Origin: a virus
Lineage: Duplodnaviria; Heunggongvirae; Uroviricota; Caudoviricetes
Length of the DNA stretch: 20,867 nt
Virus record (IMG/VR): IMGVR_UViG_3300028666_000028
Location: 1-20,867 of that record
Strand: one strand, 5' to 3'
Under the pieces are notes generated by a model, which did no database searches, had not been told where the DNA came from, and saw only the letters and a list, made by a program, of their open reading frames with translations. Of this stretch, positions 1 to 17,112 are shown piece by piece (positions within the stretch are counted from its first letter, which is position 1; each line of letters starts with the position of its first letter). The position numbers and the translations under genes were made by a program.

Positions 1-1069
1 ATCCTTCTTTACGTTCAACGAGTATAAGTATTTGATCTTTATCAGATATTCTATTCTGTACAATATCTGTAATAGATTCAAGTAACTCTAATCCTCCATA
101 ATTACTTTTATATTCAGTCTGATAGTTACTAGAAGGTTTACCTTTAAGCTTAATGATATTAAATTCAACTGGTGTTAGATAACCTTCCTTAGTTGCTTTA
201 GATGCACTGTAATCATAAACTACTTCACCTGATACTCCCCACAAATCAAGAGTCTTTGAATCATTACGCAAGTAAGTACCAGATAGTCCCAAACGATAGT
301 AAATGCCCTGGAACAATGGCAAGAGCTTTGTAAAGGACTCAGAGGCGGAATGATGACATTCGTCCAGCACAAGCAAATCTATGCCGTCTATAAGCAGTTC
401 TGCTAAGCCTTGCTTCTGTAGGCTACCTAATGACTGTATTGTAATAATTCTAATAGGCTTAAGCTTTTTATTCTTTTTAATGTCCAAAGTAGACACTTTT
501 TGTACATTTTTTAATCCAAATGAATTTTCTAGTACATCGTAAGCTTGAGTCAAAAGTGCAGAAGATGGCACTACAAATAGAACATTGACTCCCAATTCTT
601 TTATAATTTGAGCAGCTATACGAGTCTTACCGGACCCTACTGCCATTTGAAGTACACCTCTAGCCCTTCCAATAAATGCATCCACTGCTTCTTTTTGGTA
701 GGGTCTAAGATCATGTGGTTTATTATTCCATCTAAATAGTTGATATGATTCAGGTTTAACTCTATCATCTATTTGTATATAGTTACCTAATAGATCTCTA
801 ACTAAATGAAGTAGTCCAGTTGGAAATCTATTGTACTCATCTAACCAACAAACTGTATCTGGACCTAGAGCTTTGAAGCGTTCTTTAAGAATAGAGATAA
901 GTGGACCTTGTCTTCTAGACTTAGCTCTTTGAAGTTGACTATAAATCATTTGCTTCTCTCTGATGACCTCTTCATTGGTATAAGTGAGCTTAGTCTTGAC
1001 AGATGCAAGTATATCTGTACTGAATGATTGCAGTTGACAAAATGAATTATTTATGATAAGTCTAGACAT
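1..1069 (-). CDS. SF2 DNA/RNA helicase (UvsW/ResIII-like DExH), 3' end outside window
   Basis: Hand translation from ATG at 1069 (AGGA upstream): Q-motif LRPYQKEA, Walker A AVGSGKT, motif Ia VVPSSALLTQ, motif II DECHH, motif III GLSGT; open to the left edge; absent from the ORF track because it is truncated. Confidence 0.92.
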   Translation of the reverse strand, partial: MSRLIINNSFCQLQSFSTDILASVKTKLTYTNEEVIREKQMIYSQLQRAKSRRQGPLISILKERFKALGPDTVCWLDEYNRFPTGLLHLVRDLLGNYIQIDDRVKPESYQLFRWNNKPHDLRPYQKEAVDAFIGRARGVLQMAVGSGKTRIAAQIIKELGVNVLFVVPSSALLTQAYDVLENSFGLKNVQKVSTLDIKKNKKLKPIRIITIQSLGSLQKQGLAELLIDGIDLLVLDECHHSASESFTKLLPLFQGIYYRLGLSGTYLRNDSKTLDLWGVSGEVVYDYSASKATKEGYLTPVEFNIIKLKGKPSSNYQTEYKSNYGGLELLESITDIVQNRISDKDQILILVERKEG

Positions 1070-1211
1070 ATATCCTATATTTCCATATATTTTTATCCAT
1101 TCTTAACCATAATTCTACGCTATAAATACTATTGTCATATATACTATGCTTTGTATATACTTCATAAGGCGGTATCCCATTATAACCTAATGATTTAACT
1201 AGACTATTCAC
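1062..1211 (-). CDS. micro-ORF family member (49 aa, MNSLVKSLGY...IWKYRIYV)
   Basis: GTG start overlapping the stop of the FGE gene, AGGA 7 nt upstream; both family motifs present. Confidence 0.65.
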   Translation of the reverse strand: MNSLVKSLGYNGIPPYEVYTKHSIYDNSIYSVELWLRMDKNIWKYRIYV

Positions 1212-1342
1212 AATTTTGTCCTCACGAGGCGGAACCCCAAATAGCTGCCCTGAGACTCAGGCGAGTAGTAGTTGCGATAAGCCGAACGCAACGCCTGCGC
1301 AACGTTGAACCAACTACCGCCACGGAGCACGCGGAACGAGCC
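1208..1342 (-). other. DGR variable region (VR) candidate
   Basis: Abrupt GC rise (77/132 nt, about 58%, over 1211-1342 versus roughly 30% in the rest of the gene); variable codons TTC, GTT, TAT, TAC, TAC, TCT, GGC, AGC, TAT are all of the NNY form expected from AAC/AAT templates. Confidence 0.75.
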
Positions 1343-1834
1343 TTTACTAGGTCCTTTAGGATCTATACCACCTTTTAACATTTCATCATACCAGTCTTCA
1401 GTCCACTCCCAAACATTGCCGTATATATCATATAAACCAAAGTAATTTGGGAGTTTACTGCCTACTTTAATAGTTTTACCTGAATTGAAATGAGCATACT
1501 TATGTAACTGGTCTTCATTGTCACCAAAGAAGTAATTAGAAGTTAAACCGCATCCTGCTGCATATTCCCATTCAGCTTCAGTAGGTAATCTATAATTATA
1601 TTCTTTATTAAGTTTATTACATTTTTTAATGAACTCTTGAACATCTAACCATGAAACTTGTTCAACTGGTAAATCTTTACCTTTAAAGTTAGATGGATTC
1701 TTGCCAATTATCTTAACATACTGTTCTTGAGTCATTGGTGTAACTTGCATCTCATATGGTTTAGTAATAAAAGTTAATACTTTATTAGTTCCCATTAAGA
1801 ATGGTCTAGGTAATATTAGTTTAAAGTTATTCAT
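1208..1834 (-). CDS. FGE/sulfatase-modifying-factor-like (CLec fold) protein, probable DGR target
   Basis: FLMG, RLPTEAEWEYAA, NYFGLYDIYGNVWEW, RVLRGGSW...LRSAYR...GFRL motifs; lacks the catalytic Cys pair of true FGE. Confidence 0.9.
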   Translation of the reverse strand: MNNFKLILPRPFLMGTNKVLTFITKPYEMQVTPMTQEQYVKIIGKNPSNFKGKDLPVEQVSWLDVQEFIKKCNKLNKEYNYRLPTEAEWEYAAGCGLTSNYFFGDNEDQLHKYAHFNSGKTIKVGSKLPNYFGLYDIYGNVWEWTEDWYDEMLKGGIDPKGPSKGSFRVLRGGSWFNVAQALRSAYRNYYSPESQGSYLGFRLVRTKL

Positions 1835-1983
1835 ATAATTATATTCTTATTAGTTCGACCATTACCTTCATATATCCAATATCTTCTATATTCTTGTCCT
1901 GTAGTCTCAATTACAACTCTATATAAATGATAAACACTTATATAGTACTCAAGTTCACCTAATCTGTTAACTAGTTTATTCAT
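1831..1983 (-). CDS. micro-ORF family member (50 aa, MNKLVNRLGE...YWIY)
   Basis: ATGA overlaps with both neighbours; family motifs; shares YYISVY...IET with the adjacent member. Confidence 0.7.
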   Translation of the reverse strand: MNKLVNRLGELEYYISVYHLYRVVIETTGQEYRRYWIYEGNGRTNKNIII

Positions 1984-2129
1984 CTTCTTAATCCTAACAA
2001 ATGAGGATGTATATTAATACCCCATACCCATGCATATGCTATAGGATTAATACAAGTCTCAATAGATATATGATGCCAGTAAACGCTAACGTAGTACTTA
2101 TAATTAAACTGTCTATTAAGCTCTGTCAT
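1980..2129 (-). CDS. micro-ORF family member (49 aa, MTELNRQFNY...WVWG)
   Basis: Family N-terminal motif; YYVSVY...IET matches the 1831-1983 member. Confidence 0.65.
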   Translation of the reverse strand: MTELNRQFNYKYYVSVYWHHISIETCINPIAYAWVWGINIHPHLLGLRR

Positions 2130-2437
2130 TTATATAACCTTTCACCTAGGTAACTGTTAACCCATTAACAAATAATAGTAGAACTGCTTAGGCTAATAGT
2201 AAATCAGCTAAAGCAAAACCTTATAAGGGATCTGTTAAGGATTTAGTTAGCCTTACGGCTTATTAGCCACCTTAACCAGAGAGCAAATATACAAGCGAAC
2301 CTGTTTGAATGCCCTTACAATATATGTACTACTGACAAGTTTAATTTCATAGGTGAAGCTTCTACTGTTGTATATTCGACTTCAGCTACTGTTTTTCTTA
2401 TCAGTTCGTGCCTTTAGTTAGCTTATTTAGAGACGAG
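2130..2437 (-). ncRNA. candidate structured non-coding RNA or cis element
   Basis: About 300 nt with no ATG-initiated ORF of note in an otherwise packed operon; several complementary segments (2141-2148/2350-2357, 2232-2240/2270-2279, GTAA-capped hairpin 2249-2260 on minus, 2155-2170). Confidence 0.3.
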
Positions 2438-2545
2438 CTAAGGCTTACTAGTTAAACGTCCTTTAATATAAAATCTTCCTGTGTAATAATAATAAAACTT
2501 ATAATCTTTATAACATAATCCTAACTGTGTGCATAGGTGATTCAT
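2438..2545 (-). CDS. micro-ORF family member (35 aa, MNHLCTQLGL...)
   Basis: Family N-terminal motif, Tyr-rich, lacks the late Trp. Confidence 0.55.
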   Translation of the reverse strand: MNHLCTQLGLCYKDYKFYYYYTGRFYIKGRLTSKP

Positions 2546-2546
2546 A

Positions 2547-2666
2547 TTATTTTCTAAAGTAACTCCAAATTGTTATATAGTTTATAGTTCGAATATATAC
2601 TCCATTTATGTTTGTATTTACTACAGTATACCCATAATAATTCATTTGTCTAACTAGAGCATTCAT
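2547..2666 (-). CDS. micro-ORF family member (39 aa, MNALVRQMNY...IWSY)
   Basis: ATGA overlap with upstream member; both motifs present. Confidence 0.65.
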   Translation of the reverse strand: MNALVRQMNYYGYTVVNTNINGVYIRTINYITIWSYFRK

Positions 2667-2776
2667 TTCTTTTCATACTTCCAAATACACTTATGAATGT
2701 AATAATCCCAAGTACATATATCTCCATTTGTACAAACTACATATCCCATACCCATAATACTATATAGCTGTTGCAT
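2663..2776 (-). CDS. micro-ORF family member (37 aa, MQQLYSIMGM...IWKY)
   Basis: Probable true start is the internal ATG of track ORF 2663..2866; divergent head, clear IWKY. Confidence 0.55.
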   Translation of the reverse strand: MQQLYSIMGMGYVVCTNGDICTWDYYIHKCIWKYEKK

Positions 2777-2924
2777 AATAGTTTCCTTGTACATTATATT
2801 GCCATATCCAATATCTTTGTTCATATACAGGATTTGGTACATCATAAAGTATATTGATAAAGCCACCTCTAGCTATACGAACATTGTACTGATACTTTCC
2901 AAACTGTTTTACTAGTTCACTCAT
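2760..2924 (-). CDS. micro-ORF family member (54 aa, MSELVKQFGK...YWIWQY)
   Basis: ATG directly follows the VWA gene stop (TAAATG); both motifs present. Confidence 0.7.
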   Translation of the reverse strand: MSELVKQFGKYQYNVRIARGGFINILYDVPNPVYEQRYWIWQYNVQGNYYATAI

Positions 2925-4124
2925 TTACTTAATCCTTACACTATTACCATAAGGAGGTTTAACATCTGAATTAAGAACCCATAAACATTTATAGGTTACA
3001 TCATTCCTATTAGGAAAGTCTGCATAGCCATCTGTTAAATAGATTACACCTTTATATCTCTCTTCAATTGCTAACTCATGTACAGGCACAAAGCTAGTAC
3101 CACCTGCGCATACTCGTTTAGCTTCAAAGCCCTTCTTATAATCTTCTTTGTGATGAATATAAGTATCAAAGTAAGCTACTTCAATATTTACCATTCCAGT
3201 GTTATAGATAGCATCTACTTCTGCAAAACACTTTTTAATATCTTCGTCAGACATACTACCAGACATATCAATACCGATTAGAAGATCTAATTTAGGCAGC
3301 TTCTTAACACCAGGTAGTTTACCTCTAAAACGTCTGTTAACTTTTTTCCAAGTGTTCTTAGTCTTAACATCGACTAAGCTTTGCATAAACTGTCTGAGTA
3401 CAATATGCCAAGGAACTTGTTTACTTGCTTCGTGATCTAATAGGAATTTCTCAATCTCTCTAGGAGTGTTACCAGCTGATAAACACTTAGCTCGTTTAGC
3501 TGCGTTAGCTGCTATTTCATCCATCATCTTCTCATCACGAGTAGACTCGGTAAAGTAATCGTGATCTTGATGTGGTTGACCGTCTCCACTTCCTTCCTCG
3601 TCCCCTGGCTTACCTTCACCAGGTTTACTTTTGCCTTTCATAATTTTACCCTGACTCTTTAACTTAGCATAGTAGTTAACCCATGAGTCTTGATTATGAC
3701 AATTAAAGTCTTGAGGATATACACCTCTAAACTGTGCACCCTTTGGTGCAGGTAGTCCAAGCTTATCACTCTTAACTAATTCAGATATTCCTGGATTGAT
3801 TTCCATATCCATTGCAACATTCGCCATCATGTAGTTAGCTTCAATGCCTAACTTATCTGATATAGCTTCAATCTGCTTTAGCTGAGTCTGCTTAATGTGA
3901 TCTTTATACAAGTGTTGTAGTTCATGTATAAGTAATCCTGCTTGCTCTGCTACTGTGAAGTTACTAAACTTCTCAGGATTAATAGTAATCTCAATTCTAG
4001 TTTGCACCTTTACATAAGCTACATACTCTGACTTCTCGTCTAGATTGATTTTCGCTTGTTGCAACAATGCATAATAGTAGGGATAGTTACTTAATAGATA
4101 TAATTGAAGCTGCTTTATGTCCAT
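2925..4124 (-). CDS. VWA-domain protein with N-terminal HExxH putative metallopeptidase domain (DUF2201-like), MoxR partner
   Basis: HELQH motif; MIDAS GIDMSGSMS, GGTSF, YLTDGY; start placed at ATG 4124 behind a GAGGA Shine-Dalgarno. Confidence 0.88.
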   Translation of the reverse strand: MDIKQLQLYLLSNYPYYYALLQQAKINLDEKSEYVAYVKVQTRIEITINPEKFSNFTVAEQAGLLIHELQHLYKDHIKQTQLKQIEAISDKLGIEANYMMANVAMDMEINPGISELVKSDKLGLPAPKGAQFRGVYPQDFNCHNQDSWVNYYAKLKSQGKIMKGKSKPGEGKPGDEEGSGDGQPHQDHDYFTESTRDEKMMDEIAANAAKRAKCLSAGNTPREIEKFLLDHEASKQVPWHIVLRQFMQSLVDVKTKNTWKKVNRRFRGKLPGVKKLPKLDLLIGIDMSGSMSDEDIKKCFAEVDAIYNTGMVNIEVAYFDTYIHHKEDYKKGFEAKRVCAGGTSFVPVHELAIEERYKGVIYLTDGYADFPNRNDVTYKCLWVLNSDVKPPYGNSVRIK

Positions 4125-4332
4125 TTGAATCCTCACTCTCTTTTAAATAATCTATCATAGATTGTAAAGTTTGTCTAGTATTATACTTTATCTTATTATC
4201 TTTTTGCCACTTAAGCGATTTTAGTCTATTACAACTTCTACAAGTATAATGCAAGCCATCTTTTTTACTTTTATCTTTACTAAATTCTGATAAAGGTTTT
4301 GATAGCTTGCATTTAGAGCAGACTTTTTCCAT
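4087..4332 (-). pseudogene. internally deleted homing endonuclease (CxxC zinc finger plus EndoVII-like C-terminal helix, no nuclease core)
   Basis: CSKCKLSKPLSEFSKDKSKKDGLHYTCRSCN resembles the N-terminus of the 18972 HNH; continues KIKYN then LQSMIDYLKES with no DH/HNH motif. Confidence 0.6.
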
Positions 4333-4333
4333 C

Positions 4334-5674
4334 TTAACCAGTTGCGGCATCCTTTCGCTTGTGCTTATTTACCTCGTCCGTGCTTTCTAAGAATCTCTTA
4401 TAAAGATTAGAATGTCCAGGGATAAGATCATCTCTGTAAAGATACATAACCATCGTGTTATAAGCATTGAAACGTTTGATTTGTCGTTTGTGGTGTTCTT
4501 CATTGTCTTGACCATTATTATCCTCACATGGTTTGTTAGTGATGATACTATGACTAATTTGATATAGAACATCATTAGGAACTTCTTTAAGAAAGTCAAT
4601 GATAGCATCAAGCTTCTTTTTATTAACTCCCATGTTATTCTTAACATTAGTTTGAAGTTCAGCCAATGCATCCTTGACTAGTTTAGGATCAGTATTTCGA
4701 TCATACTCAAGTATACTAACTTTGTAATCAATCTTATCAACTAGCTTCTCGAATATATCTTTTAGACCATTAACAATATTTTCACTAGTAGCACTAATCA
4801 AATCATTACGCATTTCACCATAGAACTTGTTATATCGTTCAAGAGCTTTAACAGGATCTTTAACAATTTCATCATAGCTAACTGGTTTATCTTGTGTATC
4901 TAACCAGCTAAGGAATGATGCTGCTGCATTAACTCCAACTGAACTAACGAGTACATCTTTAATCAAATCTCTGTCATTCTCTAGGCCATCCTTCTGAATA
5001 ACATTATATAGTTTACTAACCATTTCCCACAGACGAGGACAAGGTTCCATCTTGATAAGAGTATCTAATGGTTTTTCTGCGCCAGTAATGTTAGGCATAT
5101 GTTTAAGGAAACTAAGAAGTTTAGGATTAACTCGTTTAGAATCATCACCCCATTTAATAAATTCACTAGCTTGAGGTTCAAATGATACTACCATAAAGCG
5201 TTTGACTAATGCTGTACTCATAGTATTAGCTGTAGTGTACTCAGAACTAGCTGGGTTAATAGCTGCACAGATATAACTATCTGGATGCAATGCGTGAGTA
5301 TGAATACGTTTTTCTAGAACCAATTGAAGCATAGCTGATTCAACGTCTGGACGAGCATTGTTAAGTTCATCTAAGAAGATAACACAAGGTTCTGTTGGCA
5401 TCCATTCAGGTCTTGCCCATGATGTAACTCTATTGACTTTCTTTTTGCCATTAGTATCAGTAGTTTCAACTGACATAATATCAGGTATACCTACAAAATC
5501 TCCGACATCTTGTTGACTTGCAAATACTGAAACGAACTTGTGATTAGGAAAAACTTCCTTTGCAATCTGTTCAGTAATCTGACTCTTGCCGATACCTGAG
5601 TGTCCCACTAGAAGGTATGGTACTCGTGCTTTCATCGCAACATTCATTAACCTGATACTATCTTTAATGTTCAT
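4334..5674 (-). CDS. MoxR-like AAA+ ATPase
   Basis: Walker A GHSGIGKS, Walker B VIFLDELNNA, ALVKRF; upstream of a VWA gene in the usual pairing. Confidence 0.88.
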   Translation of the reverse strand: MNIKDSIRLMNVAMKARVPYLLVGHSGIGKSQITEQIAKEVFPNHKFVSVFASQQDVGDFVGIPDIMSVETTDTNGKKKVNRVTSWARPEWMPTEPCVIFLDELNNARPDVESAMLQLVLEKRIHTHALHPDSYICAAINPASSEYTTANTMSTALVKRFMVVSFEPQASEFIKWGDDSKRVNPKLLSFLKHMPNITGAEKPLDTLIKMEPCPRLWEMVSKLYNVIQKDGLENDRDLIKDVLVSSVGVNAAASFLSWLDTQDKPVSYDEIVKDPVKALERYNKFYGEMRNDLISATSENIVNGLKDIFEKLVDKIDYKVSILEYDRNTDPKLVKDALAELQTNVKNNMGVNKKKLDAIIDFLKEVPNDVLYQISHSIITNKPCEDNNGQDNEEHHKRQIKRFNAYNTMVMYLYRDDLIPGHSNLYKRFLESTDEVNKHKRKDAATG

Positions 5675-5702
5675 TATCCTATCTCCTCATTTAAGTTAAA
5701 GT

Positions 5703-6635
5703 TCAAAATTCTTCTATGTCCCGCTTATTAATTCCCATCAATCTATCATATTTCATTTGAGCTAATCGCCTACGTTTTTGCATAGGTGATTCATTCTTAT
5801 TTTCATCATACTGGAAGTCTTTTAATCTGTCAAGTGCCTCATTAAAAGGTACATCAAGACAAAGAACACTTATGATTAAGTCTTTAATATGATCTATTGT
5901 AAAGCCTTCTGTTGCTTTAGCCCATACATCTATATCAATGTTATCATCGGCATGAATCTTATTAGATAGATAAACCTTTCGAGTCTCTTCATTAGGCAAT
6001 CCAACTTCAATTATACTGGCAAACCTACTAGGTCTATTCTTAAATCTATTAGGTATTCTATCAAGGTAGTTAGTAGTTCCAATATAAACAACGTTATCTA
6101 TTTGCATTTCACCATCTAATAGGCTTAAGAAGTCTGATTCATTAGCTTCAATTAAATCATCAAACTCTTCCCATACGACTAAACATCTGATATCACCTTG
6201 TATTTCTCTTATACACTTAACAACATATTGTAACATTCCAGGGGAAGGTGAAAAGAATACAATACCACCTTGTTTAACTTCAGCTTCCATTAACTGAGAT
6301 ACACAAGCTGACTTGCCAGTTCCAGGTAAACCGTGTAGAATAATACCACGCTTATAAACCAATTGTCGTTTAGTGAACTTTGCTTTAGTTTCTTTAGTCC
6401 AAAACTTCTCAACTTCTTTGATAACCTTCTCTGAAGTAAAGTCAGGTAGTCTAATAAGTGAATCGGTCATAGCTGACATACCTTCTAGGTATATTTGACC
6501 CATTGGATCTTGTTGTATAGTATATATACCAGGTTCTAGCTTCTTAGTTTTCTTATTAGGGCGTCCAAAGTAATAGGAGTTACCTTGTTTTTGATAATGT
6601 GATACGCCAACTTTAATTTCGTTTAGTATATTCAT
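5703..6635 (-). CDS. AAA+ ATPase (single-domain, BCS1-like architecture)
   Basis: Walker A GLPGTGKS, Walker B variant VVWEEFD, second region of homology TTNYLDRIPNRFKNRPSRF. Confidence 0.85.
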   Translation of the reverse strand: MNILNEIKVGVSHYQKQGNSYYFGRPNKKTKKLEPGIYTIQQDPMGQIYLEGMSAMTDSLIRLPDFTSEKVIKEVEKFWTKETKAKFTKRQLVYKRGIILHGLPGTGKSACVSQLMEAEVKQGGIVFFSPSPGMLQYVVKCIREIQGDIRCLVVWEEFDDLIEANESDFLSLLDGEMQIDNVVYIGTTNYLDRIPNRFKNRPSRFASIIEVGLPNEETRKVYLSNKIHADDNIDIDVWAKATEGFTIDHIKDLIISVLCLDVPFNEALDRLKDFQYDENKNESPMQKRRRLAQMKYDRLMGINKRDIEEF

Positions 6636-6654
6636 TTGAAACCTTTAATCATTA

Positions 6655-6683
6655 AGTATATCATACATTTATTATATAATCAA
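6655..6683 (-). promoter_or_regulatory. sigma70-type promoter for the AAA/MoxR/VWA operon
   Basis: TTGATT-17 nt-TATACT with TG extended -10 on the minus strand. Confidence 0.65.
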
Positions 6684-6805
6684 CTAAAATAAGAATAATA
6701 CCATATATCTCTATATGCTGAATAATTACAAAGTCCTATCTTTATTACCTTATCTGATTTATCTATTAGATAAGTTAAATTTAATTGTTTAATTAAATTA
6801 TTCAT
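6680..6805 (-). CDS. micro-ORF family member (41 aa, MNNLIKQLNL...IWYY)
   Basis: Internal ATG of track ORF 6680..6952; both motifs present. Confidence 0.65.
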   Translation of the reverse strand: MNNLIKQLNLTYLIDKSDKVIKIGLCNYSAYRDIWYYSYFS

Positions 6806-7007
6806 TGTCCTTAACTCCATTATCAACTTCCACTTCCAACAGTACACTACTTTTAGAATTAAGTAAAGAGATAGCCGCAAGCATATAAGCATATGCCTGT
6901 AACTTATGTGAGTCTCTTTGATATTCTGAATGTCGTGATAAGTCCACAACATTCTTTATTGCATAAGAATGAAGGTTAACTAAGTCTTTTTCTGTTATCT
7001 TAATCAT
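6798..7007 (-). CDS. hypothetical protein (69 aa)
   Basis: ORF track; ATGA overlap with upstream gene. Confidence 0.7.
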   Translation of the reverse strand: MIKITEKDLVNLHSYAIKNVVDLSRHSEYQRDSHKLQAYAYMLAAISLLNSKSSVLLEVEVDNGVKDNE

Positions 7008-7129
7008 TTCATTTTCCAGTCAGGGTAAGTATAATCCCAAAATATTTTAGTAACATCTTTCATGGAATAACCTACGCTGTTAGTTATAAAGTATCTGTCA
7101 AATCCAAATGATGTAAAGAGTTTATTCAT
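7004..7129 (-). CDS. micro-ORF family member (41 aa, MNKLFTSFGF...FWDY)
   Basis: ATGA overlaps on both sides; family motifs. Confidence 0.65.
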   Translation of the reverse strand: MNKLFTSFGFDRYFITNSVGYSMKDVTKIFWDYTYPDWKMK

Positions 7130-7284
7130 CTTCTAGTACGCCCTTTACGATAAGGTTTATATTGTGTACTAAACGACCATACTTTATTTTCCCTACCATA
7201 TCTACTAGAAATCCCAATTGATATATTGTAGCCATCATCTAAAACATATGAAATATAACCAAATTGTAATACAAGTTTATTCAT
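7126..7284 (-). CDS. micro-ORF family member (52 aa, MNKLVLQFGY...VWSF)
   Basis: Overlapping chain; family motifs. Confidence 0.7.
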   Translation of the reverse strand: MNKLVLQFGYISYVLDDGYNISIGISSRYGRENKVWSFSTQYKPYRKGRTRR

Positions 7285-7408
7285 TATTTATCCTAAAAAA
7301 CCAGTTAGTTGTATATGACTTATATGGCACAATCATTCTTGTAATACCTACAAGGCCATAAATATCACAATAGTTTATATATCCTAATATTTTAACTAGT
7401 TCATTCAT
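7277..7408 (-). CDS. micro-ORF family member (43 aa, MNELVKILGY...NWFF)
   Basis: Overlapping chain; family motifs. Confidence 0.65.
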   Translation of the reverse strand: MNELVKILGYINYCDIYGLVGITRMIVPYKSYTTNWFFRINNE

Positions 7409-7598
7409 ATCCTAATTCTTTGCGACAAGCTGGACACTGTTTATTAAACTTATGAGCAGGTTTAAATTCTTCTTGACAATTTAAACAGTTGTTATATCCT
7501 TTTTTCTTTGTCTTTGCTATGAACTTAATATAAAGTTCATTAAGATAAGTTTCATCATCCTCTTCAATTAATCTAAATATACTTTCATTGTTTTTCAT
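7401..7598 (-). CDS. small zinc-finger protein (CxxC-x13-CxxC)
   Basis: CLNC...CPAC; probable start MKNNES at 7598. Confidence 0.65.
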   Translation of the reverse strand: MKNNESIFRLIEEDDETYLNELYIKFIAKTKKKGYNNCLNCQEEFKPAHKFNKQCPACRKELGYE

Positions 7599-8034
7599 TA
7601 GGAGGACCTTTATCTTCTGCGGCAGGCAATCCAAAGAACTCTTCAATGATTCGTGTACTTACTTGAATAATCTGTTTGTTACGCATATAGATAGCGTATG
7701 ATTTCATTACCTCTTCATACTTAGGAATGTTATCTTCAAACTTAACTCCAAATCCAGTAGACAGTTTACTCTTCTTAGTTACTGCCCAACGCTTGTGAGT
7801 TACTTTACCATTTAAAGTTAAAATCCCCATATCTTGTGGTAGTTTAAAGTTTATCTTAACTATATCTTTTACATTAGGTTGAGTCTTGCAGTTAATAAAA
7901 ACGCCAATTGGTGATAAATCAAATAAAGTTCCTTCTATATCTGTTAGTGCATCTGCAAACGTATAAGTACATGCTTCTGATAAAATAGGTATTCTTATAC
8001 TTGATCTACGTTCTTTTTGTTTACTTGTTTCCAT
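7585..8034 (-). CDS. PilZ-domain protein (putative c-di-GMP receptor)
   Basis: R10-x-x-x-R14 (ERRSSIR) and D39-x-S41-x-x-G44 (DLSPIG), plus G-x-V and GFGVKF strands typical of the PilZ barrel. Confidence 0.85.
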   Translation of the reverse strand: METSKQKERRSSIRIPILSEACTYTFADALTDIEGTLFDLSPIGVFINCKTQPNVKDIVKINFKLPQDMGILTLNGKVTHKRWAVTKKSKLSTGFGVKFEDNIPKYEEVMKSYAIYMRNKQIIQVSTRIIEEFFGLPAAEDKGPPNEKQ

Positions 8035-8188
8035 CTTTATTTATCCCTGCTAATAGTTGATCTATAAGAGTATCATAGTCTCCATTATCTAAATAGATAG
8101 TTTGCCAATGAGTATCATTCTTTTTACGATAACGTATTCTTGTTTTATCGCTATTATCTGATATTAGAATTAATTTATTTTCACTCAT
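8021..8188 (-). CDS. hypothetical protein (55 aa, MSENKLILIS...)
   Basis: AGGAG Shine-Dalgarno before ATG 8188; the longer track start overlaps a micro-ORF in another frame. Confidence 0.6.
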   Translation of the reverse strand: MSENKLILISDNSDKTRIRYRKKNDTHWQTIYLDNGDYDTLIDQLLAGINKDGNK

Positions 8189-8348
8189 TGAATATACTCC
8201 TATATGTATAACAAAAAATCCAATCACTCGTTTCTGCATATGAATAATAACGATATATATGTATTCCAATGGCGCGTGTCTGTGTAATAACTCCAAACTC
8301 GCCCCTTGGTTCATAATAATAACCTAATTGTTTAACTAACTCAATCAT
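8181..8348 (-). CDS. micro-ORF family member (55 aa, MIELVKQLGY...DWIF)
   Basis: Near-consensus head ELVKQLGY; overlaps both neighbours by 8 nt. Confidence 0.7.
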   Translation of the reverse strand: MIELVKQLGYYYEPRGEFGVITQTRAIGIHIYRYYSYAETSDWIFCYTYRSIFNE

Positions 8349-8556
8349 TTGGTTTCCTACTGTTTTTAGCTGCGAGCTCTATGTAACTTATAAGCTGCGG
8401 TGCTACACTATTCAATACTAACACAAACTTCTTATACTCGTCAAGAGCCTTAATAGCATCTGAGCTTAATGCACCTGCTAACATTGCTACACTTATATCA
8501 TCTAAGTTATTATCTTTGGCATATGCTGTTATGAACTGAAGTAATCCAGCTTCCAT
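8341..8556 (-). CDS. hypothetical protein
   Basis: Track ORF 8341..8607, start moved to MEAGLL to avoid overlap with the upstream ORF. Confidence 0.6.
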   Translation of the reverse strand: MEAGLLQFITAYAKDNNLDDISVAMLAGALSSDAIKALDEYKKFVLVLNSVAPQLISYIELAAKNSRKPND

Positions 8557-8557
8557 A

Positions 8558-8719
8558 TCATCCGTCTCCGTTATAACCAATAAAATCTGAATCTCTTTGT
8601 TCATCATACATCATATCACAAATTGATGCATATTCATTAGTGATTTCATCTTCAGTTGGCTTACGTCCAAGTTCTTCTGTTAGTCGTTCTTGAATTTCAA
8701 TATAAGTATCTTTGTCCAT
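8558..8719 (-). CDS. hypothetical acidic protein (53 aa, MDKDTYIEIQ...)
   Basis: TAATG overlap with the collagen-like gene stop; hand translation. Confidence 0.55.
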   Translation of the reverse strand: MDKDTYIEIQERLTEELGRKPTEDEITNEYASICDMMYDEQRDSDFIGYNGDG

Positions 8720-9378
8720 TAGAATGTATTCCCAAATTGATCTGTTAAAGTAGTTCCACTAACTGTAAAATGACAGTTAGATCCATCTGTATCAACATAA
8801 CTTCCATTAGGTATAAGTGTTAACCTAACTGTTAATGCATCTCCATTAGCTGAGAATGAAGACAGGAATTGACCATTAACAAGTTTAATAATTACTTCAC
8901 GATAACTAGTAGTAATAGAAGGGCATGGTGTAATGAACTTCAATATAGCATATTGTGGCGCAGGTGTTCCAGGTGCACCTTGAGCTCCTGTTGCTCCAGT
9001 GTTACCTTGGACTCCTTGATTACCTTGCTGACCTTGTATACCATCGCATACTACAGTTGACTGATTCACTTCAGATGCTTCTAGTATGTTATTTGAGTTA
9101 TTATCTAATCCGCTTCGTACAATTGAACCAGAACCAGCGGCACAAATTGAAGTATCAGCCGTGAATCTTGAAAGTGAAAGTAATGAGTTTAGACCATTAG
9201 TTCCCGTCGTGCCTTGACTTCCATCCTTTCCATTTACTCCATTAGATCCATCCTTACCAGCTGGACCAGGAACTTGAACAGTATTTGATTTATAAGTCTC
9301 CTCGCCACATGATATAAATACCAGTGTTAGCACTGATACAGTTAGTAGACCAAGTATTAGAACTGCTAATTTTCTCAT
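8719..9378 (-). CDS. collagen-like (Gly-X-Y) lipoprotein
   Basis: Hydrophobic signal ending in lipobox-like VFISC; two Gly-X-Y tracts flanking a C...GLDNNSNNILEASEV...VCDG module. Confidence 0.8.
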   Translation of the reverse strand: MRKLAVLILGLLTVSVLTLVFISCGEETYKSNTVQVPGPAGKDGSNGVNGKDGSQGTTGTNGLNSLLSLSRFTADTSICAAGSGSIVRSGLDNNSNNILEASEVNQSTVVCDGIQGQQGNQGVQGNTGATGAQGAPGTPAPQYAILKFITPCPSITTSYREVIIKLVNGQFLSSFSANGDALTVRLTLIPNGSYVDTDGSNCHFTVSGTTLTDQFGNTF

Positions 9379-9662
9379 GCTGCTTCTGCCTTCTTTATTT
9401 TATTCACTTTTAATGTTACTACATTTGAAACTTTAATATAAGGTTTAAGAATAGTATTATCTAATTCAAGTGATGCCTTCTTAAGATCAAAGCTTTCACG
9501 ACTAGATGTAGTTAGTTCAACTGAATAATCATCTAGTGTATATACACCAGCTTCATTCTTAAATCTAGTCTTAATCTCTTTATTAATAGGATCTAACTCG
9601 GCTTCTAGTTCTTTGATTTGTTCTTTAAGTTCTACATATCTTTTAAGTTGTTCTATTTCCAT
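9375..9662 (-). CDS. phage coiled-coil hypothetical protein
   Basis: GGAGG Shine-Dalgarno; heptad-rich N-terminus. Confidence 0.75.
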   Translation of the reverse strand: MEIEQLKRYVELKEQIKELEAELDPINKEIKTRFKNEAGVYTLDDYSVELTTSSRESFDLKKASLELDNTILKPYIKVSNVVTLKVNKIKKAEAA

Positions 9663-9681
9663 ATATCCTCCTTTAATAACT

Positions 9682-9894
9682 TTAATTTAAGTTCACTGAA
9701 TTGTCAATAGGTGTTAATACTAATCTAGAGATATCCATACACCTCATTATCTCTCTATCTGTTAAATTACTATGAGAGAATGTTAATCTAAATATATAGT
9801 GTTTATAAAACATTCGAAGTTCATATCCAGTTAAGAAGCGATATGACTCTAATCTGAAATCTTTAGGACACTTTATATGATCTATTTTAATCAT
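9682..9894 (-). CDS. hypothetical protein (70 aa)
   Basis: ORF track, colinear with neighbours. Confidence 0.6.
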   Translation of the reverse strand: MIKIDHIKCPKDFRLESYRFLTGYELRMFYKHYIFRLTFSHSNLTDREIMRCMDISRLVLTPIDNSVNLN

Positions 9895-9898
9895 ATAG

Positions 9899-10222
9899 TT
9901 ACCATCTTAATGTTATAACTCCAGCTGACAATAAACTTCCAACTCCGCCGCTAATCAAACTTCTTTTAGTATCACTAGGGAAGCCTTCAGATGCCTTATA
10001 GGCAACGTTTGCGGCAGTTGATACTGCAACGCCTACAACTGTACACAAAGTCTTATCTGAAGGGCTATTGATTCGTTCGCAAGCTAACTCTGTTACATCT
10101 GTTATAGCATATGCTCCGCCTAAATGTGCAGTGATGTGCATTAAGTTATCTTGTGTAGTATCTGCATAGCAAGTATTGCATATGCAAATAAGTAATAGTA
10201 TTAATACTTGTAATATCGCCAT
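9899..10222 (-). CDS. secreted or membrane protein with signal peptide
   Basis: Hydrophobic N-terminus ending CYA-D; Gly/Ala-rich hydrophobic helices. Confidence 0.7.
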   Translation of the reverse strand: MAILQVLILLLICICNTCYADTTQDNLMHITAHLGGAYAITDVTELACERINSPSDKTLCTVVGVAVSTAANVAYKASEGFPSDTKRSLISGGVGSLLSAGVITLRW

Positions 10223-10308
10223 AGTCCTTGTCCTGTTATAATAATTACATTAAATTTACTTCCTACATGGTAAGATTCATTTATTAAATGTTCAACTAAT
10301 TCATTCAT
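10201..10308 (-). CDS. micro-ORF family member (35 aa, MNELVEHLIN...LWRY)
   Basis: ATGA overlap with the sigma-r4 gene stop; both motifs recognisable. Confidence 0.6.
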   Translation of the reverse strand: MNELVEHLINESYHVGSKFNVIIITGQGLWRYYKY

Positions 10309-10601
10309 ATAAAATCCTTAAGATTATCTTTAAATTTATGAAATCTTTTAAGTTTTTTTATACTTTTATCATATATGAAATGTATTCTAGCTTCTGTTAC
10401 TTCATATCTATTAGCTATTTCACTAATACTCCAAGGATAGTTTCCAGTTAAACCAAAATACATAATTAATAATTTAACTTCAAAAGGTCTTAAAAGTAAA
10501 CTTAATTGATTAATTACAATCTTATTTAATTCTTTATTTGAATATAATTCATCTGGACCAATTAATTCTTTTAAAAATGGATTGTATTTAATTTTACTCA
10601 T
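10305..10601 (-). CDS. stand-alone sigma70 region-4-like HTH protein
   Basis: LRPFEVKLLIMYFGLTGNYPWSISEIANRYEVTEARIHFIYDKSIKKLKR follows the RpoD region-4 pattern; no region 2; start MSKIK by ATGA overlap. Confidence 0.8.
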   Translation of the reverse strand: MSKIKYNPFLKELIGPDELYSNKELNKIVINQLSLLLRPFEVKLLIMYFGLTGNYPWSISEIANRYEVTEARIHFIYDKSIKKLKRFHKFKDNLKDFI

Positions 10602-10671
10602 ATAATAAACCATATTAATACCATAATCCAAACTACAACCCAAAGTAAACAAGCAAACACATCGTCATTCA

Positions 10672-10848
10672 TTAGTTACCCTTCAATTCAGCTTCTAAGT
10701 TATCATAGTAATCAGAATATGTCAAGTCGTCTAGTTCCATATCAGTTAGATTAAAGTCACATTCTAGACATTCAGTCCATTCATTGAATGTATCAAGATA
10801 ACGTTGACCTTCTGCACAATCGCAGTTTTCATAGTGTATACGTTTCAT
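10672..10848 (-). CDS. small acidic Cys-containing protein (58 aa)
   Basis: Hand translation MKRIHYENCDCAEG...CLEC... Confidence 0.55.
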   Translation of the reverse strand: MKRIHYENCDCAEGQRYLDTFNEWTECLECDFNLTDMELDDLTYSDYYDNLEAELKGN

Positions 10849-11301
10849 TTTTTAGCTTTCATTATTTTCTTAAATCTTGTTGGTCCTAATATTTCAAACA
10901 ATATAATTAATGGAATAAGTACTATTAAATGTAAAATATTTCGAGGGTTTACATAATGAGTACCTTTCATTCTAAAAGATTTTATGTACACTGTCTAACT
11001 CCTTTGTATATTCTATCTGTTCAAATATATCACAAACTAAATTAGCTTTCAATATACTCTTATGATATATTTCGTAAGGGATAGGCATATAAGTTCCATC
11101 ATACACGTAAACGTATTCAAAGTCACTCATTGCATAACCCAGTTAACTGCTACATAAGTTACAACTAAAGCTTGTCCAAACAACAACGCTTGGATTAAAA
11201 GATCCATAATTTCATTGTGAGCTTTAAGCTTCTTAGTTTGAAGTCTAATCTTTTTAATCTTAGTATCATATCCAAACTTTGGTGCATTAATAGTTTCCAT
11301 G

Positions 11302-11478
11302 TTATTTCACTCCCACTAATAGATCTTCTACATCCAGGAAGTTATAGAGATTGTACAATCTTGAATGTACTTCTAATGGTATCTTTGTACCTAATTCTGC
11401 ATTTATCATTTGATCTATTTTAATTTGTGCTTTAAACTCTGCTAATGCATTTAGTATATCTTTATTATGTTGAGTCAT
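11302..11478 (-). CDS. hypothetical protein (58 aa, MTQHNK...)
   Basis: GAGGTG Shine-Dalgarno before the internal ATG of the track ORF. Confidence 0.6.
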   Translation of the reverse strand: MTQHNKDILNALAEFKAQIKIDQMINAELGTKIPLEVHSRLYNLYNFLDVEDLLVGVK

Positions 11479-11521
11479 ATTTATCACCTCAATTAAAGAA
11501 TAACATAGTCTATTTGCTTTG

Positions 11522-12064
11522 TCAACGTCTCCAAAAACCACTAAAGGTTTGACAATAAGTGAAAGAATTTCCAATATAATCAACTACTTCCCAAACAGGT
11601 GCATATGAATAGTGGCCGCTATAGTGATTATAATTACTTTGTTCAAACCCTGCATATCTAAACTCTTTAAAATTCTCTATAATGTTCATCATTGATTCAT
11701 TATCATTAGGACCATCTGGAATAGTTAACTCACTCAATCTATTCACCTTTTTAAGTCGTCCAGTTGGAGTCTTATATAAACCTTGTAAGAATGCTAATCC
11801 TTGTTTAGTATGATCTAATTCAATTCTAACTATCTTGCTAGGTTTACCTTTGTATTCATGAATATCAGTTAACTCTTTTATCTCATGGCTAGTTAGATTG
11901 TGCACTAATCCATGATGATTAAGTATAGACTTTAAGTTAACAATCTCTTGTTTAGTAACAAAGCCTTTGTCTGCAATAGTTGCATACTTATGATATCGTT
12001 TACTAAACTTAGGCAATACTCCCAAATCTTCTTTTAATTTTCTTAGGCTATAATCTGCATTCAT
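11522..12064 (-). CDS. phage hypothetical protein (180 aa)
   Basis: Long ORF, TAATG coupling; no function recognised. Confidence 0.8.
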   Translation of the reverse strand: MNADYSLRKLKEDLGVLPKFSKRYHKYATIADKGFVTKQEIVNLKSILNHHGLVHNLTSHEIKELTDIHEYKGKPSKIVRIELDHTKQGLAFLQGLYKTPTGRLKKVNRLSELTIPDGPNDNESMMNIIENFKEFRYAGFEQSNYNHYSGHYSYAPVWEVVDYIGNSFTYCQTFSGFWRR

Positions 12065-12300
12065 TAGTAAAGCTCCTCATATTTAAATTTATACTTTGGA
12101 TATGTACTAAAATTAAGTAATAGATCTTTAATGTTTACAATTAAATATTCATTGTTATCTCTTTTAATTAAAATCTTCTCATGTCCTTCTGCTCTTAATA
12201 ATCCTTCTTTTAAATTAGTAGATGGAATAATTGGAGTTACTGATTCTTTTAATTTAGTATACCATACTTTAAAATCATATTCTTTAATCAAGTTATTCAT
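12064..12300 (-). CDS. hypothetical protein (78 aa)
   Basis: ORF track; overlaps both neighbours. Confidence 0.7.
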   Translation of the reverse strand: MNNLIKEYDFKVWYTKLKESVTPIIPSTNLKEGLLRAEGHEKILIKRDNNEYLIVNIKDLLLNFSTYPKYKFKYEELY

Positions 12301-12464
12301 TTAGTTAGTCTCCCTTCTAAGAACTCAATTACTTCAGCCGCCACATTAGCGTACTCAATCCAACCTTTGCTAGTTAACGTGTTACCAGCTTTCTCAGCTT
12401 CAATAGCTTTTATCATCCATTCAACTCTTAATTGTCTAACGTCTTCGACTGCACTATCTTTCAT
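12297..12464 (-). CDS. hypothetical protein (55 aa, MKDSAVEDVR...)
   Basis: GAGGAG Shine-Dalgarno; ATGA overlap downstream. Confidence 0.65.
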   Translation of the reverse strand: MKDSAVEDVRQLRVEWMIKAIEAEKAGNTLTSKGWIEYANVAAEVIEFLEGRLTK

Positions 12465-12631
12465 ATAATTAACTCCTCAGTTTGACTATATCTATAACTA
12501 TATTGAATGCAGTTATCCTCTTCCAAGTCTCTGTTATTTGTTTATTAAACCAATCTAACCTTAGTTGCATTCTATGGAATATTATAGTTACTTCATACTT
12601 AAAATAATTTATTCTATAAACTCTCATATTG

Positions 12632-13015
12632 TTACTTTACAATTGCATACTTAATTCCAGTTGTTAAGTCTTCTGTATAATCCCCATTGTAGTTATCGTT
12701 TACAGCTTCAAACCTACCTAATACTTCATTGACTTCATTAACAGTAACAAAGCTAGGATGCCTAGAGCCGTCAAGTTTCAATATACAGTCTTGATTATAC
12801 TTTCGACAATGATCTTGTGCAGTCTTATCATTCCATCCTAGAATCACTACTGAATCTTCTTTAGTTCCTTTATATACTCCTTTGACTTCTTTAATAGAGT
12901 ATCCATCATCTCTAAGTTGTCTAACAAAGTCAGCGTGAAAGCTTTGATTTACGGTTAGCGATTGACTTGTTTGATATACGCTTGCGATATAAGTTGTTGG
13001 ATAGATTGGCTTCAT
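12632..13015 (-). CDS. S-adenosylmethionine lyase (T3 gp0.3 SAMase-like)
   Basis: N-x-x-x-H helix, G46-V-Y-K...E53-D-S, Q75-D-C-I-L and C-terminal GRFEAV...GDYTED parallel the recalled T3 SAMase layout (GCY...EEK...QDCVL...GSFQEV...GCFTID). Confidence 0.72.
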   Translation of the reverse strand: MKPIYPTTYIASVYQTSQSLTVNQSFHADFVRQLRDDGYSIKEVKGVYKGTKEDSVVILGWNDKTAQDHCRKYNQDCILKLDGSRHPSFVTVNEVNEVLGRFEAVNDNYNGDYTEDLTTGIKYAIVK

Positions 13016-13016
13016 T

Positions 13017-13478
13017 TTAATTTACTCCTATAACTTGCTTCAAACTAGAAGCACTTAAGTTGTTAAGATTATACAATTGACGGCCTAATAGCTTATTAAC
13101 TACATCAATCTTCTGATTAAGTTCTGTTATCTTAGCTTGACGCTGTACATTCTTAGCCTTATGTGATCTAGGTTTAGCAATCTCATTCTTTAGTCTAGTA
13201 ACTTCCATAGTATGATAAGCTATAGCACTTTCTGGTGATTGCAAACCTTTAGGTGCTTCAATCTCTAGATCAATCTTAATGCCTAGGTCTCTAAGTACAC
13301 TTCTAATCTTCCATTGATGCTTATTAGTGCTAGGGCTATAGTTATAATCATTGAATATAACTAAACCATTAATCTTATCAACAAACCTCCACCAATCATA
13401 GGAATATGCTCGACAAGTTGCAGGATTAAAGCTAACATTAGATGCCTTGTATAACTTAAGTTTACTAAAGTACTTCAT
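13017..13478 (-). CDS. phage hypothetical protein with YSxSTxKHQ motif
   Basis: AAGGAG Shine-Dalgarno before MKYFSK; C-terminal coiled coil. Confidence 0.75.
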   Translation of the reverse strand: MKYFSKLKLYKASNVSFNPATCRAYSYDWWRFVDKINGLVIFNDYNYSPSTNKHQWKIRSVLRDLGIKIDLEIEAPKGLQSPESAIAYHTMEVTRLKNEIAKPRSHKAKNVQRQAKITELNQKIDVVNKLLGRQLYNLNNLSASSLKQVIGVN

Positions 13479-13654
13479 TTTAAAGACTCCTTTGCTAATA
13501 CGTTTCGAATAGCTATACATTCACTTTCAGTTTGACACTCTGTTAGCATCTTGTCAAGCTGTATAACTATATTACTTCTAGGTTTGCTATAAGCTTTAGG
13601 TTGCATCGCTAGATGTAAACCTGTTAACGCTATAGCTAAAATAATCCATCTCAT
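13475..13654 (-). CDS. small protein with N-terminal hydrophobic segment (59 aa)
   Basis: Hand translation MRWIILAIALTGLHLA...; overlaps both neighbours. Confidence 0.55.
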   Translation of the reverse strand: MRWIILAIALTGLHLAMQPKAYSKPRSNIVIQLDKMLTECQTESECIAIRNVLAKESLK

Positions 13655-13779
13655 TAGTTACCCTTCACTACTTCAACATATCCCTTGAAAGCTGCAGCAT
13701 ACTCTTTAGCCATGTTTACAGCTTCATATTCAGTATCAAACTCGTCTATGACTTCATTATTCCATATTAGTTTAAACAT
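13654..13779 (-). CDS. small phage protein (41 aa, MFKLIWNNEVIDEFDTEYEA...)
   Basis: GAGGAG Shine-Dalgarno; TAATG overlap downstream. Confidence 0.65.
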   Translation of the reverse strand: MFKLIWNNEVIDEFDTEYEAVNMAKEYAAAFKGYVEVVKGN

Positions 13780-13850
13780 GTCAATACTCCTCTATTCAAA
13801 GGCTAAGCAAATCACATATCCAATTATGACAATTAAAATCAGTGTAAACA

Positions 13851-14171
13851 TTAGATTGACTCCTCAACATAGAAGTGCTCAATTGTAGTCTTAGGCTTCT
13901 TATTATGCAGTGTAACCCACGTTTCACGCGTAAAGTATTCATTGCAATCTTCATACTTAACTTGCTTCTCAAATACCCATCCTATTGAAACTACACTTCC
14001 ATCTAGCTTCTCAATGAATACTTTACCTGTACATCTTCCGTTATCCTTCTGTAAAGCTTTAAAGAGTATAGCTTTACTATCCGTGAAAGTCTCATATACA
14101 TTGCTTTCACCTAAACCAGCATTATTAGTCTTATCAATCCAACATTCATTAATCATTAAGTTAGTTTTCAT
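13851..14171 (-). CDS. phage hypothetical protein (GRCTGKVF...IGWVF...ETWV)
   Basis: AAGGAG Shine-Dalgarno, 106 aa ORF. Confidence 0.8.
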   Translation of the reverse strand: MKTNLMINECWIDKTNNAGLGESNVYETFTDSKAILFKALQKDNGRCTGKVFIEKLDGSVVSIGWVFEKQVKYEDCNEYFTRETWVTLHNKKPKTTIEHFYVEESI

Positions 14172-14184
14172 TGTATAATTCTCC

Positions 14185-14397
14185 TTACTTAGTTATCATA
14201 ACGTATTGTTTACCTAAGCGCAATACCTTGCCGCATTTCATTAGCCTAACAAACTCCTCAAAGCCAACCAATATCTCTTTAAACAAAGGTATCTTGTATC
14301 CTTCTAACGTTAGCTCATATAAGTGTATTCTCACCATACAACTATACAATGCAACAACCATGCCAACTTTTAACGCTCTAATAGCCTCTATAAGCAA
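14185..14397 (-). CDS. possible hypothetical protein (70 aa)
   Basis: ORF track only; non-ATG start and no clear Shine-Dalgarno. Confidence 0.35.
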   Translation of the reverse strand: MLIEAIRALKVGMVVALYSCMVRIHLYELTLEGYKIPLFKEILVGFEEFVRLMKCGKVLRLGKQYVMITK

Positions 14398-15541: not shown

Positions 15542-15654
15542 ATAAGTCTGCTTTTAACATATAGAAATTATATTTTAAATCCATTATAATCATAGTTGGC
15601 CTCTAAAGTTCATATAAGCCTCTACATGAAGACTTTTTGTGAAGGTAAGGTAGA

Positions 15655-17067: not shown

Positions 17068-17075
17068 CAATATAT

Positions 17076-17104: not shown

Positions 17105-17112
17105 GTTTATCC

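Follow-up and report, generated by a model that had tools for sequence, protein, structure and literature searches.

A phage-encoded PilZ protein and its apparent chromosomal counterpart in one class of Bdellovibrionota

The first 20.9 kb (positions 1 to 20,867, the whole stretch of DNA that was analyzed, referred to here as the window) of the IMG/VR virus record IMGVR_UViG_3300028666_000028 contain a gene for a PilZ protein. The original prediction, made from the sequence alone, was that this is a phage-encoded PilZ protein with intact motifs for binding cyclic diguanylate (c-di-GMP). The main point that emerged beyond that prediction is that the phage gene appears to be a xenolog of a core gene specific to one lineage of candidate host bacteria.

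The PilZ gene, its product, and the phage genome

The PilZ gene lies on the minus strand at positions 7585 to 8034 and encodes a stand-alone protein of 149 amino acids (P0001), as judged from the list of open reading frames (ORFs), the translation, Pfam, AlphaFold2, and Foldseek. In the translation the RxxxR motif reads R10-S-S-I-R14 (positions 7993 to 8007) and lies on a flexible N-terminal arm, and the DxSxxG motif reads D39-L-S-P-I-G44 (positions 7903 to 7920). The Pfam PilZ profile PF07238 matched residues 8 to 108 over profile positions 1 to 94 of 102, with a score of 34 bits against a cut-off of 22.5 and an E value of 3.8e-8, and the same match was recovered in a scan of the whole genome. 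An AlphaFold2 model built from a 62-sequence alignment had a mean predicted local distance difference test score (pLDDT) of 91.8. Secondary structure assignment with DSSP on this model gave the six-stranded PilZ beta-barrel at residues 15 to 99 (positions 7738 to 7992), followed by a single long C-terminal helix of 31 residues at residues 104 to 134 (positions 7633 to 7725), in which block pLDDT was 92 to 95. The helical extension that had been expected from the sequence is thus present in the model.

The fold points in the same direction. A Foldseek search of the PDB returned 29 matches at E values of 1e-3 or lower with c-di-GMP-bound PilZ domains on top, providing the structural match that the original prediction called for. 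The best match was the YcgR PilZ domain 5y6g (E value, 1.4e-5; template modeling [TM] score by target, 0.71), followed in order by Alg44 (4rt1), PA0012 (8u0i), MotI, MapZ, PlzA, and MrkH. Searches of the Swiss-Prot and AFDB cluster models gave the same picture. By sequence profile the nearest solved structures were XC1028 and XAC1133, PilZ proteins of the type IV pilus kind, at E values of 5e-4 to 2e-3 over barrel residues 33 to 97; these two were also highest in identity among the fold matches (22 to 25%). A single-sequence phmmer search of the PDB with the window protein gave nothing meaningful. The Pfam score and the fold together indicate that RxxxR and DxSxxG are not a chance pair of motifs, and the protein consists of one canonical PilZ domain, standing alone, in which neither ligand motif is disrupted. 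By analogy with the characterized receptors, we infer that it binds c-di-GMP. A prediction of a homodimer from two copies, with the same 62-row alignment, scored 0.23, the mark being 0.42.

The record that carries the gene is 84,867 bp long, with 33.6% GC, a 127-bp terminal repeat, and a CheckV completeness of 100%. Public sequencing runs that contain the phage DNA are labeled as rhizosphere metagenomes, and none is listed as RNA. A gene for a 482-amino-acid helicase runs over both ends of the record (window positions 2 to 1069, continuing at about 84.3 to 84.7 kb). Therefore, the 127-bp repeat arose where the assembly of a circular or circularly permuted genome overlaps itself and does not mark a physical terminus at that place. 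In addition to the helicase, the window encodes an FGE-sulfatase-type protein, a DUF2201 protein of the VWA/metallopeptidase type, a MoxR-like AAA_5 ATPase, a second AAA ATPase, a collagen/DUF7151 lipoprotein, a sigma-70 region-4 protein, an endonuclease VII/HNH protein, and the large terminase. The remainder of the genome encodes PolB, a primase-helicase, SbcCD, an RNA ligase, and an HD phosphohydrolase, as well as a peptide deformylase, an SPFH/Band-7 protein, and a RecA-like protein (on the minus strand of the whole genome at 64172 to 64657, 75060 to 75905, and 72659 to 73534, respectively). A complete viral genome with terminase, HNH endonuclease, helicase, PolB, primase-helicase, SbcCD, and RNA ligase genes bears out the claim that the PilZ gene is phage-encoded.

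Searches of the whole phage genome found no tyrosine integrase or resolvase, nor any GGDEF or EAL domain. The phage is thus apparently virulent, as far as its gene content indicates, and the empty integrase and resolvase searches led us to reject the idea that the PilZ gene is prophage cargo in this genome. Contamination with host DNA, or a mis-binned bacterial fragment, was rejected as well, because the phage genome is closed and the PilZ gene recurs on many phage contigs.

The PilZ gene sits inside a long run of tightly packed small genes on the minus strand. The stop codon of a small upstream ORF (positions 8021 to 8314) overlaps the PilZ start by 14 nucleotides. At the other end, the ATG of a gene for a 65-amino-acid, zinc-ribbon-like protein with two CxxC pairs (positions 7401 to 7598) overlaps the last PilZ codons, again by 14 nucleotides, and this gene appears translationally coupled to the end of the PilZ gene. 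This arrangement suggests that the PilZ gene belongs to an operon made up of small genes of early type, immediately upstream of the ATPase genes and those for replication. Promoter and terminator scans gave signals at background level only. About 0.7 kb upstream of the PilZ gene lies the gene for the lipoprotein-like protein with collagen repeats and DUF7151 (positions 8719 to 9378, minus strand).

Extent and conservation of the PilZ family

A word-indexed search turned up no more than four close relatives of the window PilZ. An exhaustive phmmer search of 1.84 billion cluster representatives (50% identity) returned 71 at E values of 1e-3 or lower, 54 of them at 1e-10 or lower; the best 64 members are 83 to 159 residues long. 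The family is therefore narrow, about 70 clusters at 50% identity. It is also uncommon in phage collections, as had been supposed. No PHROGs family and no PADLOC defense or antidefense family matched the window PilZ, neither megablast nor tblastn found a match to it among 50,697 GenBank phage records, and the BFVD viral structures contained a single structural match at an E value of 1e-3 or lower (S5VYD7). A literature search found no paper on a phage-encoded PilZ, only papers on phage proteins that target host PilZ, PilB, or YfiN.

Eight family members outside the bacterial clade described below were looked up in their genomic context, and all are on phage-like contigs, which have many small co-directional ORFs and phage genes; among them are P0003 (8.5 kb), P0005 (118 kb), P0006 (39 kb), P0009 (76.7 and 25.5 kb), P0025 (100.6 kb), P0036 (5.9 kb), and P0021 (52.9 kb). 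Three further IMG/VR viral contigs, of 119, 83, and 50 kb, also carry a member, and two of these are rated complete, with exactly one PilZ gene each. The window and several relatives have a gene order in common, namely DUF7151/collagen protein, PilZ, AAA, AAA_5, DUF2201, helicase, and HD. Ten phage records that share the AAA ATPase at 37 to 42% identity, including a complete genome of 106.5 kb, have no PilZ gene. Thus, PilZ is an accessory gene of one sublineage and not part of the core of the wider phage group.

The recurrent gene order raises the possibility that the PilZ protein is a sensor internal to the phage, which would relay the host c-di-GMP level to a phage protein (the AAA ATPase, the MoxR-VWA pair, or the sigma-region-4 protein) and so time the phage program. 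In the window and in related phages L004, L034, and L044, the PilZ gene lies 0.3 to 1.5 kb upstream of the conserved AAA ATPase gene, which is followed by the AAA_5/DUF2201 pair. However, the phages with that ATPase at 37 to 42% identity manage without PilZ, the neighbors differ in other phage lineages (KTSC, Rrf2-like, and uracil-DNA glycosylase genes), and bacterial orthologs that have no such phage partner beside them carry the same C-terminal helix signature. We regard this explanation as improbable.

In L004 (76.7 kb; 13184 to 15858 and 17446 to 19422), genes for HsdM and HsdS of a type I restriction-modification system stand between the AAA_5 and DUF2201 genes, and the helicase carries an intein; the window has neither. 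The DUF7151 protein is found at the same relative position in L003, L004, and the P0006 contig. A small gene annotated as Acb5 (PF26761) directly follows the HD phosphohydrolase gene in L004 (from 20415 to 20426 onward) and in the 39-kb P0006 contig. At the equivalent position of the genome studied here, an ORF of 87 amino acids (81953 to 82216, minus strand) had no match in a Pfam library that did not include PF26761.

Conservation was counted over 74 family sequences, 61 from the phage side and 13 bacterial. Seven alignment positions were invariant: R10, R14, G44, L65, P66, W83, and I122. The three ligand-site residues among these (R10, R14, and G44) were thus present in 61 of 61 phage-side and 13 of 13 bacterial sequences. 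Position 39 was D or N in 58 of the 61 phage-side members and position 41 was S or T in 55, whereas the bacterial copies of DxSxxG read D-I-T-x-x-G. The full combination of RxxxR and [DN]x[STA]xxG was found in 52 of 61 phage-side and all 13 bacterial sequences, which leaves nine phage-side members without part of the motif. This pattern in the alignment shows the putative ligand site to be under strong purifying selection.

The best conserved region of the family, above even the ligand site, is the distal half of the C-terminal helix. In the window protein it comprises residues 116 to 135 (positions 7630 to 7689) and reads, in the translation, Y-M-R-N-K-Q-I-I-x-V-S-x-R-I-I-E-E-F-F-G. The nearly invariant family consensus is Y-L-R-N-K-Q-I-I-x-V-S-K-R-I-I-E-E-F-F-G, and the window protein agrees with the signature, in which the second position may be L or M, at 18 of 20 positions. 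Mean pairwise identity among the 61 phage-side sequences was 68% over these residues, compared with 56% for the RxxxR arm, 29% for the barrel, and 27% for the first half of the helix. The share of residues equal to the bacterial consensus followed the same regions at 80%, 57%, 31%, and 40%, respectively. With the ligand arginines and 20 residues of the helix held fixed and the remainder of the protein at about 30% identity, those two surfaces should be the ones that matter. We propose the distal half of the helix as a candidate output or partner-binding surface.

This conservation also bears on whether the protein might be a ligand-independent adaptor, like the Xanthomonas and Pseudomonas PilZ or Myxococcus xanthus PlpA, that would act through protein contacts only, for example with the type IV pilus motor or a polarity module, with its motifs being vestigial. 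The proximity of XC1028 and XAC1133 by profile and the nine phage-side members with an incomplete motif would be consistent with such a role, as would the precedent of PlpA, which shows that the motifs alone are no guarantee of c-di-GMP binding (PMC8316039). However, the XAC1133 type lacks both motifs, which are present here, and the invariance of R10, R14, and G44 in 74 sequences with only about 30% barrel identity is hard to explain without a function of the ligand site. An adaptor of this kind is unlikely, though less so than the phage-internal sensor.

The bacterial counterpart and candidate hosts

A scan of cellular genomes, one per GTDB species, with two helix patterns from a 10-row alignment recovered 13 loci, all in metagenome-assembled genomes labeled Bacteriovoracaceae, Bdellovibrionota, or 'Deltaproteobacteria'. 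Each genome has one copy, which scores 163 to 177 bits against the family profile, whereas the other PilZ paralogs score 36 bits or less. Among 301 sampled Bdellovibrionota genomes the family PilZ was present in 13. These are 13 of the 14 species of one GTDB class, and the gene was found in none of the other 287 sampled genomes of the phylum. The class is small and uncultured, and its genomes carry the NCBI label Bacteriovoracaceae. All 13 loci are syntenic, with the PilZ gene convergent with glmS-glmU and divergent from an operon of a gene for a receiver (REC) domain plus DUF2497 (PopZ-C-like), birA, coaX, and a 360-amino-acid ORF; two of the loci are on contigs of 415 and 551 kb. Identity among the PilZ proteins of the class is 58 to 77%, above that of birA and the receiver protein and about equal to that of glmS. 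These features show the cellular form to be a vertically inherited, single-copy signature core gene of this class and not a prophage gene. The nearest sequence to the bacterial clade from outside these genomes, P0028, comes from a contig of 1.3 kb on which the next gene downstream is convergent with it, an arrangement also seen in the bacterial loci, and is therefore probably bacterial.

The phage gene does not lie between glmS and the REC+DUF2497-birA-coaX operon but among phage early-type genes. It would therefore be a xenolog and, strictly speaking, falls outside the chromosomal orthogroup. A maximum-likelihood tree of 77 sequences, without a reliable root, placed the 13 bacterial proteins on one side of a branch with a Shimodaira-Hasegawa-like approximate likelihood ratio test (SH-aLRT) support of 95. 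The end branches were 0.2 or shorter in the bacterial clade and 0.3 to 1.7 on the phage side, with the exception of the window PilZ (0.12). One transfer would be enough to explain the distribution of the family, and we infer that the phage lineage and the bacterial class exchanged the PilZ gene once. The original prediction had considered that the region might be host-derived. This holds only in the evolutionary sense of a host-gene xenolog, as the gene is inside a phage genome and recurs on at least eight other phage contigs.

The main argument for the hosts of these phages is that they share a lineage-specific PilZ gene with the class, which makes bacteria of this class the somewhat favored candidates. 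The phage peptide deformylase offers a weak second signal. In a comparison made within the phylum only, all 14 class genomes were among the top 29 of 301, at identities of only 33 to 39%. DUF7151 was also considered as a host marker; it had no match in the 13 class genomes or in control genomes and is hence uninformative.

The 3' end of the FGE-sulfatase/C-type-lectin-fold gene of the window (positions 1208 to 1834, minus strand; mainly 1215 to 1441) has 70 to 71% DNA identity over 150 to 224 nucleotides to genes in four genomes of the candidate host class (G090, G030, G046, and G076), and G090 has three such stretches on one contig. This likeness may reflect a variable/template region of the diversity-generating retroelement type or a shared gene pool.

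The class genomes (2.1 to 3.0 Mb) each have 8 to 12 GGDEF genes and at least 12 PilZ genes, which indicates that c-di-GMP signaling is active and heavily used there. A protein that reached such a cell could act simply as a sponge. Produced in abundance, it would soak up free c-di-GMP, and the resulting global drop in the signal would shift the motility, adhesion, or predation state without any specific partner. The original prediction had named the sequestering of host c-di-GMP among the possible roles, and the conserved, intact ligand motifs of a small single-domain protein encoded among early-type small genes are in keeping with it. Furthermore, a phage without GGDEF or EAL domains could touch the signal only by binding it. 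However, the strictest conservation is on a distal helix that is kept host-like, a surface that a sponge would not need and that fits a shared protein partner better, and only this one type of the at least 12 host PilZ paralogs occurs in these phages. We consider a pure sponge unlikely, although it is the strongest of the alternatives.

A related possibility is an antidefense sponge for cyclic-dinucleotide immune signals of the CBASS (cyclic-oligonucleotide-based antiphage signaling system) or STING type. In bacterial TIR-STING systems the alarm signal is c-di-GMP, and relatives of the phage carry the Acb5-annotated gene a few kilobases away. With 8 to 12 GGDEF genes in the candidate hosts, however, c-di-GMP would be a housekeeping signal there rather than an infection alarm. 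In addition, the fold is that of a regulatory PilZ and not of a known sponge, PADLOC gave no match, and the frozen helix argues against an antidefense sponge in the same way as against a c-di-GMP sponge. This is the least likely of the explanations considered, and we give it very little weight. Of the specific roles in the original prediction, the disabling of pili or flagella, the blocking of superinfection, and a sponge against CBASS-type signals thus gained no support from the analysis.

A proposed role and comparison with known systems

The reading that we prefer, with about an even chance of being correct, is that the window gene encodes the phage's own version of a host receptor for c-di-GMP, able both to bind this ligand and to engage the partner of the host protein. 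The phage would probably interfere with the c-di-GMP pathway by means of a copy of the host's own signaling protein. The PilZ protein would be expressed from the dense, co-directional cluster of small genes that lies upstream of the replication genes, and its conserved arginines and DxSxxG loop would bind the c-di-GMP of the host. The distal half of the helix, nearly identical to that of the host protein, would then engage a partner that is normally under the control of the host receptor. By competing with or substituting for that receptor, the phage protein would drive or block one c-di-GMP output and fix it in a state that favors infection. The helix is proposed as an output surface for a partner present in the host because this helix is also retained in the host ortholog, where no phage is involved. 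Other PilZ proteins offer parallels. The patch with which YcgR binds its partner includes the C-tail helix of the PilZ domain. In the MapZ-CheR1 complex, which was among the fold matches (5xly), the ligand-bound PilZ binds a protein partner.

Two outputs can be suggested. Control of type IV pili is a weak lead from the profile match to XC1028 and XAC1133. The divergent receiver gene with its PopZ-C-like domain, which neighbors the host PilZ gene, hints at a cell-pole module. This gene (L012, 4986 to 5705, minus strand, with equivalents in L007 to L019) heads the operon with birA and coaX, and its combination of a receiver with a PopZ-type C terminus recalls polar hub proteins. The architecture is reminiscent of RomR, which we take to be a candidate comparison only. 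A literature search that combined receiver-domain with PopZ-C/DUF2497 terms found no paper. In Bdellovibrio, RomR is a pole-defining hub that controls pili and prey invasion; bioRxiv 10.64898/2026.07.08.737194 gives context.

A more ambitious and more tentative form of the proposal is that these are virulent phages of 50 to 120 kb with a fast-evolving copy of the signature receptor of the class, which has kept ligand site and output helix and so plugs into a host partner and takes control of it during infection. That partner might be the pilus or cell-pole apparatus with which predatory relatives invade their prey. Such a protein would be the first c-di-GMP effector of viral origin to act by mimicry.

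Several observations weigh against the preferred reading or against the host assignment that accompanies it. The direction of transfer cannot be read from a tree that lacks a reliable root. The host assignment comes from the shared gene and one weak second signal, the deformylase. A search in the style of CRISPR-spacer matching, with window positions 1 to 20000 against 13 class genomes, gave only matches of 19 to 38 nucleotides and no spacer match; the three best of these short matches lie outside repeat arrays and were therefore treated as chance. At 33.6%, the GC content of the phage is 7 to 16 points lower than that of the bacterial loci (40 to 50%). Nine of the 61 phage-side members lack part of the ligand motif, and the conserved helix could instead serve self-association or ligand contact.

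If a phage copy of a host receptor is nonetheless what the gene encodes, the prediction is that the helix binds the same partner in phage and host. Through the shared gene, a group of metagenomic phages is connected to a Bdellovibrionota class of 14 species for which, to our knowledge, there are neither phages nor genetics. In that case these phages would have their first link to a host, and the gene would offer a way into the biology of a class that is uncultured. Should the reading prove wrong, what remains is one more accessory PilZ gene carried by a phage, and interest in it would be modest.

Comparison with characterized proteins places the window PilZ closest in form to c-di-GMP receptors. 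It shares with YcgR (5y6g/5y6f), MapZ/PA4608 (5xly and 1ywu), Alg44 (4rt0/4rt1), and PA0012 (8u0i) the six-stranded barrel, the RxxxR arm, the DxSxxG loop, and a C-terminal helix, with Foldseek E values of 1e-5 to 1e-3 and TM scores by target of 0.6 to 0.75. Two of these receptors, MapZ and PA0012, also stand alone as a single domain and work by binding a protein partner. The window protein differs from this group in that identity is only 12 to 22%, its helix is about twice as long (31 residues) and bears a signature that they lack, and it is phage-encoded.

The PilZ proteins of the type IV pilus (XC1028, 3dsg; XAC1133, 3cnr/7lkm/7lkq; and the PA2960 type) are also small stand-alone barrels with a C-terminal segment. 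In Xanthomonas and Pseudomonas they are pure protein adaptors that bind PilB and FimX. Neither RxxxR nor DxSxxG occurs in that subfamily, which does not bind c-di-GMP according to the title of 3dsg, whereas the window PilZ has both motifs.

PlpA of M. xanthus resembles the window protein in having a single PilZ domain with intact motifs and in coming from a deltaproteobacteria-type lineage. We know of no PlpA from phages. PlpA is a stand-alone PilZ that controls cell polarity and reversals by acting on the polarity module (PMC8316039), and a parallel to this role is the position of the host ortholog here, divergent from the receiver gene with the PopZ-C-like (DUF2497) domain.

Phages are known to act on these pathways by other means. 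Aqs1 and Tip bind PilB, Zip/PlzR binds PilZ, and phage peptides bind YfiN (PMC11461919, PMC13436744, and PMC8085984). Like the window PilZ, these are small phage proteins, and they rewire pilus or c-di-GMP pathways. However, they are novel inhibitors without homology to host signaling proteins, whereas the window PilZ is a homologue of a host receptor and would therefore act by mimicry rather than as an invented inhibitor. We found no characterized case of a phage that carries a homologue of its host's own c-di-GMP receptor. PilZ itself is a textbook domain; the arrangement for which we found no description is a phage lineage of virulent type with an apparent xenolog of a receptor specific to its candidate host class, in which both the ligand site and the putative output helix are conserved.

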